From a virus (taxonomy: Duplodnaviria; Heunggongvirae; Uroviricota; Caudoviricetes), in the IMG/VR virus record IMGVR_UViG_2724679238_000014, positions 1 to 16,900 of that record: a stretch of DNA of 16,900 nt. One strand, 5' to 3'. Of the stretch, positions 11,201 to 14,200 are shown piece by piece (positions within the stretch are counted from its first letter, which is position 1; each line of letters begins with the position of its first letter). The position numbers were made by a program.

Positions 11201-14200
11201 CCTGCTTTTTCTCGATAAGACAGTAACTTATTTTGATGGTGATGGCATTTATGCATTTTGTTTTGATGGAGAATGCTACGTGAAAAGACTTCAAAAAATT
11301 GGAAGTAAAATCATGGTGTTATCTGATAACCCCAATTATCAACCATGGAGCATCGAAAAAGAGGGGTTAGCTCTGCTTTATATCCAGTCTAAAGTGATCT
11401 CATCAGTACCATTCAATATAAACAGATTTGGTTAGTCTTTGATTTTAACGGGCTTTGCCCGTTTTTTTTTGCCTAAAACACACTGTATCAATTTTTTCTT
11501 GACAGCCTATTTCTCAAAGCATAATATCGCACAATCAATTATAACTTGATTGAATTCAATTTAAAATTGTTGGCGGATATATGAAGACACTAAACGCAAC
11601 TCCAGAAACAACTAATTTTATCAACTGCGGCTGTGTTTCGCTTAAGGGCTTAGAACTTGATTCCTTTGCATTAAATATTGCAAATTTGCTAAGTGCTGTA
11701 CGCACATTCCATCTTCTGGATTGTGCTCGCTCAAAGGAACTGGGCATTGAGGTAATGGAATTTATCCATGAATATGCTCTATCTGCGGCTTCTCCTGCAC
11801 AACAAAAACAATCCTTCCCTGAAAGCTGGCTGGTTAACCTTCGCACCCAACGCGAAGCCTGCGGCTTAACAACAGCCGAACTCGCCAGGCTGCTCGATCT
11901 CGATGAAGAAATTATCATTCAGTGGGAGAGCGGAGAGTATGAACCAACTATCAGTATGCTTATCCCGCTGGCAAATGTTCTTGGTTGCGACCCGATGTGG
12001 CTGTTAACCGGTAAACCAACAACTGGGGATACTTGCGCATGAAAAAGTTCGAAAACATAACTGTTCTCCATGTCGATGACTTTGATTATACAAACCGAGA
12101 ACTTCTCCCGGAGGTTATAAAAACAATCGAAGTTGCCGATATAGTGTTTAGAGGAAAGAGGATTGTTAAAAACAAGCTCGTATGCAATTCAGGAGCAATA
12201 ACAGAAAAAAAACCACAACAAGATGATTATGAAGGTATTTGTCTGGAGCCTGACTCATTTGCGGTAAATGTTTATCATTTATTGCATGCAACACAGGTAT
12301 TACATATGTCAAGTAATCACGAAACAAAAACACTTGGCAGCGAAATTCTGAATTTTGCATGTGAATATGCAAAAGCTGCTGCCGAAAAAGAATTAGCGCA
12401 ATAACAATAAATATTCCCTGAATGTTTATTACGGTTTTATCGCCGGGGACTGTTGCAACCTTTATTCGCAGGAGATTATGTTATGACTTTCCTGAAAAAT
12501 AAGGCATCGTATAAAACTGCCTGCCTCATTGCACAACATGGAGATTCTTATCTTCATATAGCCAACCTGTATTTGCGCAAAGCATATGGGAGATAAATAA
12601 ATGGAAGAAAAACAACAGAACATAACACATAAAAAAGTAAGAGTGTTGCTAACCATTGAAAATGGCGAAGTAATTTACTCAAAACATCTGTTGGATAATG
12701 AATTCGTTGGATGCATGGATACATTTCTGTGGATGGCAAAAAGAGCTGGCTACACAATTATTCCACCAGCAAAGGAGAAAACATTATGAATCATTCAGAG
12801 TTCCAACCAGAAGTTACGCCACATGGCATAAAAATTGGCAATACAACCATTGATTATGTTGAGGCCGTACAGCGGCTTAATGATGGTGAATACGATTATC
12901 CAAATTCTCACGGTTTAAGAATTATGCAATGTATTGCTGAAGCCGATGATGCCGGATTACTGGGACGATTTTCAGTCGATATGAAGGTTGCTCAATGGCG
13001 ATGGCTGTATGTGACGACGTTTATAAATGAAGAAGAAGGCAAGAACGGCACCATTGATATCCCTAACGATAACGGAACTACAGATCGCGCGGTTATTTAC
13101 AAGGGTAAACATGGTTGCCTGAGTATCTACCCTGGACCACTTCGCATTGCCCTGCAAAACCATGTCGAATGGGGATTCATTGAAAAATATGGCGAAGCTG
13201 AAGGCATGGGGCGAGTTCTGTTTCTCTATCAAAAAATGCTCATCGCAGATCCTGATAATGGCTTCATTGTCTCTGCTATGGGACGAGAAGGGCTTGAACT
13301 TCTTCTGGATGAAATGATTCACGATCTGAATACTCATGGTATGCCAGAAACACCAGTGGCACATTAAATATGTCAAATCAGAATAAAATTAATGTATTTC
13401 AGGTTGAATCAAAACATAAAACACCTGTGACAAAACACGTTCGCCGCCATACACGCATCTATACGCCAGGAGAGTTTATGGCAATGCCAATGATAAAGAA
13501 GTTTATTCGTGATAATCCCGATCACATTGCTATAGATAAAAATAACGGAGAAATAATGTTATCACGCGAACTTGCCGAAATTTACTGTAACGTGAATAAC
13601 GGTAAAAAATTGAAAAAGGCAATCCGAAAAAAATCAGGAGTAACAAAATGAATAGCATCGAGACACAATGTTCCTCATCTGAAGTTATGAACTATGACCC
13701 AAATCTGACGTCGTGCGGACGCATGGCAAAACAAACTGTTCGATTAACTTTCGGACTATGGGAATACCGCGAAACATTCGAAGTCACTGTCGGTGGCAAC
13801 CTGACCGGACTCGATGTTATCAGTTGTGCTATTGAAAGTCTGTACGAAACGCTGCCTTATGAAGAAGTCCGGAATGAGCGCACTGGAGGGACGGATATCA
13901 TGGCCACCATTAATATTGGCGAACTGACATGTCAGGATGAAGACCTGTCCGGAGAGCTCTGGCTTGCCGGGATGCTTATCTCAGCAGAAATTATCAGTAT
14001 TGAACCCGCTACAAACATACGGCTCTGAAGTTCTCACCATTCAGAGAGCAGGAGAAAAAATGTTCGCTTTGATTAATCAAGGGCAACTGTATACCGACAG
14101 TGCCGGTTACCCGATAAAAATTATTCGCTGCATAAACAACACTGTGTTGTACAGAAGAATGGATGGGCGAACACAATCTGTAAAAATAAGCGATTTTAAT

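Follow-up and report, generated by a model that had tools for sequence, protein, structure and literature searches.

We analyzed a 16,900-nucleotide (nt) stretch of viral DNA (IMG/VR record IMGVR_UViG_2724679238_000014, positions 1 to 16,900; hereafter the window), focusing on three consecutive open reading frames (ORFs) that encode proteins of 193, 93 and 126 amino acids (aa). The presence of stxA, stxB and the antiterminator gene Q identifies the window as a phiP27/ASU11-type Shiga toxin (Stx)-converting lambdoid prophage, and the region of the three ORFs shares 94% DNA identity with the early-left arms of E. coli prophages, Stx phage ASU11 and phiP27. The three ORFs are:

12786..13367, plus strand: 193-aa protein of the family phrog_1515
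13370..13651, plus strand: 93-aa Lys/Arg-rich protein
13648..14028, plus strand: 126-aa DUF5406 protein

An initial annotation had described these ORFs as a coupled trio in which a basic protein is flanked by two strongly acidic ones, and the sequence confirms the ORFs, their lengths, their charge ratios and their start/stop coupling. The 193-aa protein contains 29 Asp + Glu and 15 Lys + Arg residues (1.9:1; isoelectric point (pI) 4.84), the 93-aa protein 8 and 20 (pI 10.2), and the 126-aa protein 20 and 7 (2.9:1; pI 4.09). The first two genes are separated by a 2-nt gap, the second and third overlap at an ATGA, and the stop codon of a 62-aa ORF overlaps the 193-aa start in the same manner (ATGA), giving a chain of four coupled genes. 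An AAGGAG lies 8 nt 5′ of the 193-aa start and an AGGAG upstream of the 126-aa gene; the 93-aa gene has no obvious Shine-Dalgarno sequence and is probably translated by coupling to its 193-aa neighbour. For the 193-aa gene, 40 distinct copies gave a ratio of nonsynonymous to synonymous substitution rates (dN/dS) of 0.19; for the 126-aa gene the value was 0.13, based on only 3 full-length ungapped copies. The three ORFs are real genes.

The early-left position given in the initial annotation was likewise correct, since a strong terminator-like hairpin follows the cI-type repressor gene and a promoter-like site precedes the first gene of the arm, placing the three genes between the repressor and xis/int. 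The relevant features are:

10740-11435, plus strand: S24 cI-type repressor gene
11447..11473, plus strand: intrinsic-terminator-like hairpin and T-run directly after the repressor gene (7-bp stem with 5 GC pairs, then TTTTTTTT)
11499..11527, plus strand: sigma-70 promoter-like site TTGACA-17-TAATAT (10 of 12 consensus matches)

The site at 11499..11527 is the probable pL-equivalent driving a leftward early operon that includes the three genes. A promoter scan returned no candidate within the three-gene region and a single weak match upstream of it, at 12250.

We surveyed gene order at 80 IMG/VR loci carrying close DUF5406 relatives. The order 193-93-126 was present in only 7 of these 80, and the 193-aa gene was absent from 17. 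One locus holds the 93-aa gene together with a pair consisting of a 62-aa gene and a 275-aa SPFH/Band-7 gene, and the remaining loci have this pair, and no 93-aa gene, between the 193-aa and 126-aa genes. Counted by partner, the 93-aa gene accompanies the 193-aa gene in 8 of 63 loci and the 126-aa gene in 8 of 80. The 193-aa homologue of Citrobacter, Klebsiella and phage CharmingMan is flanked by a 140-aa gene on one side and a Bro-N antirepressor gene on the other, with both partners absent. DUF5406 is found without the other two genes among the early genes of a Mu-like Pseudomonas prophage, in a Pseudomonas ERF-SSB-Ea22 arm just before int, beside primase and DNA methylase genes, and in a Treponema phage, while a Serratia homologue of the 93-aa protein is encoded two genes from DUF5406. 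Together, these data show that the three genes assort independently and do not form a unit, in disagreement with the functional trio proposed initially, and that the acidic-basic-acidic sandwich is a recombinant order present in a minority of loci.

Between the 193-aa and 126-aa genes lies a hotspot of cassette swapping. The usual occupant of this slot, normally in place of the 93-aa gene, is the SPFH pair, exemplified by an E. coli 06-00048 prophage (L001:5246-6258) and by phiP27 L05; the SPFH protein has weak similarity to HflK/HflC. The 93-aa protein matched no Pfam, PHROG, NCBIfam or PADLOC family, so that the earlier statement that the trio lacks recognizable motifs holds for this member, whereas it fails for the 126-aa protein (DUF5406/phrog_3409) and the 193-aa protein (phrog_1515). 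The 93-aa family comprises ten clusters from E. coli and Citrobacter, plus the Serratia prophage homologue (32% identity, E 2e-14), and a related-locus search of species genomes for wider relatives found none. We also recovered 120 stretches matching a degenerate DNA pattern for F[ML]AMPM[IV]K, all of which were chance matches according to hmmsearch.

These distributions bear on two alternative explanations. If the basic 93-aa protein were toxic or host-killing and held in check by a flanking acidic protein, in the manner of a type II toxin-antitoxin system, the tight coupling of acidic and basic genes would be expected, as would the co-occurrence of the 93-aa and 193-aa genes in 8 of 8 loci that carry the former among the 80 E. 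coli-type loci. Nevertheless, the 193-aa and 126-aa genes mostly occur without a 93-aa partner (found in 8 of the 63 loci with the 193-aa gene), no such partner was seen in Citrobacter or Klebsiella, searches gave no PADLOC or toxin-antitoxin family match, and the genes lie inside a repressed lytic operon instead of an autoregulated cassette. We therefore consider a toxin-neutralizer pair very improbable.

The second alternative takes the hotspot itself as its starting point. Cassette-swap hotspots often hold defence genes, and a slot that accepts either the 93-aa gene or the 62-aa + SPFH pair might contain prophage defence or superinfection-exclusion cargo protecting the lysogen. Against this stand the lack of any PADLOC match for the three proteins and the absence of a detected promoter inside the region (the weak match at 12250 being upstream). 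Moreover, the genes are probably silent in the lysogen, because they are co-oriented and coupled within a repressor-controlled early operon. Lysogen-protecting cargo is thus a quite improbable account of the locus.

Next, we considered the individual acidic proteins. The 126-aa protein is matched by Pfam DUF5406 (PF17400) at 82.4 bits against a cutoff of 25, with residues 15-119 aligned to profile positions 1-116 of 116, and by phrog_3409 at 2.3e-50; it retains the conserved core MNYDPN...GGNxTGL...DExxGExWL...AEI. The family comprises 113 clusters at 90% identity from Escherichia, Salmonella, Serratia, Pectobacterium, Pseudomonas/Stutzerimonas and a Treponema phage, and its acidity is family-wide (median pI 4.19, net charge -0.107 per residue, 103 members). 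The AlphaFold2 model, built like that of the 193-aa protein with a family alignment, predicts a small beta-beta-alpha-beta-beta-beta-alpha-beta sandwich with a disordered N-terminal stretch of 13 residues (predicted local distance difference test (pLDDT) score 85.4, predicted template modelling (pTM) score 0.74). A BFVD structure search with this model returned DUF5406 relatives only, and PDB searches found no solved structure for the family.

The genomic context of DUF5406 offers a pointer to function. A DUF5406-Lar fusion (Lar, PF14354) is encoded in P0179 and sibling contigs (L092/L277:192-725; Lar 43 bits, cutoff 28.6), and a fusion in the reverse order, Lar-DUF5406, is found on a metagenomic phage contig (L217:2949-3623). 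DNA methyltransferase genes flank DUF5406 in three loci, and Lar or methyltransferase neighbours recur. The Rac prophage encodes a Lar protein that relieves type I restriction (King & Murray 1995, cited in PMC4041452). Fusion in both orders suggests, at the level of domain architecture, a pathway shared by DUF5406 and Lar, and provides a weak, guilt-by-association link between the 126-aa protein and restriction alleviation. DUF5406 is the sole one of the three genes with any pointer, suggestive only, toward counter-defence. A Pfam scan of the ORFs in the arm of the window yielded no match to the Lar zinc-ribbon domain, which was seen only in the distant DUF5406 fusions.

The match of the 193-aa protein to phrog_1515 covers its full length (E 1.1e-91; residues 1-193 on profile positions 12-203 of 203). 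Its family comprises 128 clusters at 50% identity, drawn from 1.84 billion representatives, nearly all of them stand-alone proteins of 190-220 aa. The predicted structure is mixed alpha/beta (pLDDT 90.2, pTM 0.85), and the model most likely describes a two-module globular protein. The C-terminal half also occurs on its own: stand-alone proteins of ~120 aa, encoded in the same prophage arms of Serratia, E. coli and Citrobacter (L009:2298-2657, L071:1740-2096, L006:3997-4356), match this half of the family profile with E values from 1.7e-7 to ~0.2, suggesting that a helical module with the motif Y-x-x-M ... L-S-x-x-G-R recurs. A precomputed flag assigned Pfam PF17345 to two homologues; this was not reproduced in a scan of all 46 members and the assignment was rejected.

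A second feature of this family is its C-terminus. In an alignment of 53 members, which share 19-42% identity with the window protein apart from one close relative, the last residue is His in 49, making it one of the five most conserved positions of the family. The tail is usually P-[VT]-x-H, with V, I, L, M or T often preceding the His: the window protein ends in -PVAH, and many relatives end in -PVIH, -PVLH, -PVMH or -PTIH. Because the downstream genes differ among lineages, the constraint on the terminal His acts on the protein. According to a 2025 study, a widespread C-terminal Lon degron, present for example in SulA and Smg, has the motif x-[LI]-[LIV]-H and is determined principally by its terminal His (PMC11986505). 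The family shares with these degrons the terminal His and, in the model of the 193-aa protein, a flexible tail. As the near-invariant His fits a C-terminal Lon degron, the 193-aa family may be built to be short-lived by means of a Lon-degron-like tail.

We then evaluated the proposal that the acidic pair are DNA mimics of the Ocr, ArdA or Gam type, blocking restriction enzymes, RecBCD or other defences, with the trio constituting an anti-defence unit. The early-left position, the low pI of both proteins (family-wide in DUF5406) and the occurrence of DUF5406 fused to Lar and sometimes beside DNA methyltransferase genes would all be in line with this idea. The low pI and the residue ratios of roughly 2:1 and 3:1 are confirmed, but describing the two proteins as strongly acidic overstates their acidic content. 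Asp + Glu account for 15.0% of the 193-aa and 15.9% of the 126-aa protein, with net charges of -0.073 and -0.103 per residue, whereas Ocr contains 34 acidic and 6 basic residues in 116, compared to an expected ~12 of each (PMC3439906), corresponding to ~29% acidic residues and ~-0.24 per residue. The window's acidic proteins thus have about half of Ocr's acidic content. Comparable fractions occur elsewhere in the window (xis, 15.9%; an 85-aa ORF, 16.5%), and the two proteins are among its three lowest-pI products mainly because they contain few Lys and Arg residues. Acidity in the 193-aa family is only mild (median pI 4.85, range 4.05-8.74), with some members basic. The acidic-basic-acidic pattern is probably coincidental.

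Dedicated searches gave no positive support for mimicry. The three proteins had no PADLOC or NCBIfam matches at all and no Pfam match to an anti-defence family; PDB sequence and profile searches with the proteins and their family alignments produced chance-level hits only (E 0.018 or worse); and nothing resembling Ocr, ArdA, ArdB/KlcA or Gam in sequence or in fold was found. Structure comparison of the confident 193-aa and 126-aa models, the check put forward with the original proposal, retrieved no Ocr, ArdA, Gam or other anti-defence structure and no DNA-mimic fold among its matches; nor did it reveal an unrelated housekeeping fold, as there were no good matches of any kind. Because DNA mimics vary widely in structure and share no common fold (PMC3902945), the negative fold search removes positive support without excluding mimicry. 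Taken together with the limited charge and the independent assortment of the three genes, we regard DNA mimicry as improbable.

The remainder of the operon introduces a further possibility. Besides the three genes, it contains:

11581..12042, plus strand: 153-aa HTH_3 protein, the operon's first gene, pI 4.52 (PF01381, 1.4e-11; phrog_4836 'CII-like regulator', 8.7e-78)
12033..12404, plus strand: 123-aa protein (phrog_5451, 2e-75)
12601..12789, plus strand: 62-aa protein (phrog_340, 5.8e-24; weak matches to antirepressor C-termini; dN/dS 0.13)
14060..14302, plus strand: 80-aa DUF4222 protein (RgdR family), next in the operon after the 126-aa gene (PF13973, 56 bits, cutoff 27)
14306..14452, plus strand: 48-aa protein (phrog_3871, 2.8e-34)
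14461..14670, plus strand: excisionase (phrog_2917, 1.5e-40)
14598..15797, plus strand: tyrosine integrase, at the end of the arm (PF00589 and Arm-DNA-bind_2)

The 153-aa helix-turn-helix (HTH) protein is of comparable acidity to the 193-aa and 126-aa proteins, and it has in common with the 123-aa protein a helical domain of ~50 aa, visible as cross-matches to phrog_4587 and phrog_5451. The window's copy of the DUF4222 protein lacks the RGD tripeptide. A repeat scan of positions 11400-14700 yielded nothing meaningful.

RgdR, a DUF4222-family prophage regulator, activates type III secretion encoded by the locus of enterocyte effacement (LEE) in enterohaemorrhagic E. coli (PMC10877973). With a member of its family adjoining them, the three genes could be developmental or host-gene regulators of an exo-xis-like or DUF4222/RgdR-like kind that tune the lysis-lysogeny choice, induction efficiency or virulence genes. 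Several observations are compatible with such a role: the genes are positioned like the exo-xis ORFs of lambda, DUF5406 is encoded just before int in the Pseudomonas ERF-SSB-Ea22 arm, the 193-aa family repeatedly adjoins antirepressor-type genes, and a Lon-degron-like tail would suit a timed regulator. Conversely, no DNA-binding or regulatory domain was detected in the three proteins, and acidic proteins are unlikely to bind DNA themselves. We consider regulation of this type possible, if on balance unlikely.

The plus strand of the window runs from the S24 cI-type repressor gene through to the excisionase and integrase genes. The minus strand carries genes for lysozyme and a P21-type holin, the toxin genes stxB and stxA, antiterminator Q, replication genes (for a DnaB-type helicase, a DnaC-like loader and an initiator), and both antirepressor-type genes and a Cro-like gene. 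Features located there include:

2121-2274, minus strand: tRNA-Gly(tcc) and tRNA-Thr(tgt), between stxB and the holin gene
2788-3057, minus strand: stxB, 89 aa (SLT_beta, PF02258, 5e-42)
3064-4023, minus strand: stxA, 319 aa (ribosome-inactivating protein domain, PF00161, 2.2e-27)
4471-4839, minus strand: antiterminator Q, upstream of the stx genes
8829-9017, minus strand: Rfam matches to C4 antisense RNA (RF01695, 82.8 bits) and isrK (RF01394, 63.7 bits)
10340-10612, minus strand: 90-aa protein in the Cro position (Pfam YdaS_toxin family, PF15943, 1.4e-12)

Given its location between stxB and the holin gene, the tRNA pair lies downstream of the toxin genes and not between Q and stx. The C4 and isrK matches fall within the 5′ part of an Ash/Rha-type antirepressor ORF (8412-9074), which suggests a P1 immI-like or Gifsy-like antirepressor module under small-RNA control. 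The YdaS_toxin family is that of YdaS of the Rac prophage, which is repressed by RacR.

Considering the evidence as a whole, we favour, with moderate confidence, an explanation in which the three ORFs are independent, cassette-like accessory genes of the leftward early (pL-type) operon, each acting alone early in lytic growth. This is the most economical interpretation and ranks above DNA mimicry, a toxin-neutralizer pair, developmental or host-gene regulation, and lysogen defence cargo. In the lysogen, the three genes would be repressed, and after infection or induction they would be co-transcribed from the promoter located past the cI terminator. Their present adjacency would have arisen because recombination placed the rare 93-aa cassette into the variable slot between two commoner genes, and the three proteins would form no obligate complex or system. 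Each is envisaged as a small protein that binds and modulates a host or phage factor. The 126-aa DUF5406 protein, with its predicted compact acidic alpha/beta fold and conserved acidic loop DExxGExW, would be the leading candidate for a helper in counter-defence or restriction alleviation, on account of its two fusions to Lar; the 193-aa protein may be a deliberately short-lived, Lon-timed early effector or regulator; and the 93-aa protein may be a rare, optional add-on, possibly nucleic-acid-binding or toxic in the manner of Kil. A more specific version, in which DUF5406 alleviates restriction or another DNA-targeting defence together with Lar or on the target of Lar, and phrog_1515 is a Lon-timed effector with the His as its degron, appears decidedly unlikely at this level of detail.

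Several observations weigh against the favoured explanation or its parts. Tight coupling of four consecutive genes is also what would be expected of a multi-subunit system, and the data leave room for some pairwise cooperation. A 169-aa Serratia protein encoded beside the 93-aa homologue gives a weak profile match (hhalign probability 11.5%, hmmsearch E 0.03) that hints at a distant relative of the 193-aa protein, although we did not accept it as one. The -PVAH tail of the window protein agrees with the published Lon motif at the terminal His alone, having V and A at -3 and -2. With regard to DUF5406, the link to Lar consists of two metagenomic fusions and a few adjacencies, and the Lar domain of the reverse-order fusion on L217 scores 25.9 bits, just below the Pfam cutoff. 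Among 80 genes flanking diverse DUF5406 copies there was no dominant partner and no family exceeded 2 of 80: Lar was found twice (one being the fusion itself) and methylases twice, the rest being assorted nucleotide-metabolism and HTH genes. Lar and methylases are, in addition, common in phage early regions anyway. Our literature searches returned no paper on DUF5406, PF17400 or the PHROG identifiers.

As it stands, the region is an ordinary stretch of mosaic hypothetical early genes. If DUF5406 does act in counter-defence, this would assign a role to a domain that recurs in the early regions of temperate phages (lambdoid, Mu-like and others) across Proteobacteria and beyond, and would shed light on the mechanism of Lar-type restriction alleviation. 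Similarly, if the terminal His of phrog_1515 is a Lon degron, the family would clearly exemplify a phage early protein whose timing by a host protease is built in. In Stx phages, early-left accessory genes can affect induction and hence toxin output.

Comparison with known systems places the three proteins as follows. Like Ocr (T7 gp0.3) and ArdA, the acidic proteins are small, early products of a phage or mobile element with net negative charge. Ocr is an elongated helical dimer, in contrast to the mixed alpha/beta folds predicted for the window proteins, and its 34 acidic and 6 basic residues in 116 compare with 20 acidic and 7 basic for the 126-aa protein and with 29 and 15 for the 193-aa protein. 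Lar/Ral proteins (PF14354; Lar of the Rac prophage) and DUF5406 are both encoded by small early-left prophage genes and are found fused to one another, but DUF5406 is not homologous to Lar, and the relationship is one of association only, without enrichment in the neighbour survey. The exo-xis ORFs of lambda and Stx phages (ea22, ea8.5, orf60a/61/63/73) are small, mosaic and non-essential genes located between early-left functions and xis/int. The window genes occupy the same niche, and one DUF5406 gene resides in an arm with an Ead/Ea22 protein, while homology to any of the exo-xis ORFs was not detected.

The closest relationships are to sequences that have already been deposited. All three genes are present in published phage genomes as hypothetical proteins at 91-97% protein identity, and two of them fall into catalogued families. 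Within DUF5406/phrog_3409, the 126-aa protein is an ordinary member, with a full-domain match, shared motifs and the family-wide low pI. The 193-aa protein, at 91-97% identity to phiP27 L06 and ASU11 gp53, is an ordinary, end-to-end member of phrog_1515; in phiP27, the counterparts L06 and L04 carry the annotation 'unknown'. To the description of phrog_1515, the present analysis adds a fold without a PDB relative, a C-terminal half that also exists as a stand-alone protein, and a near-invariant final His.

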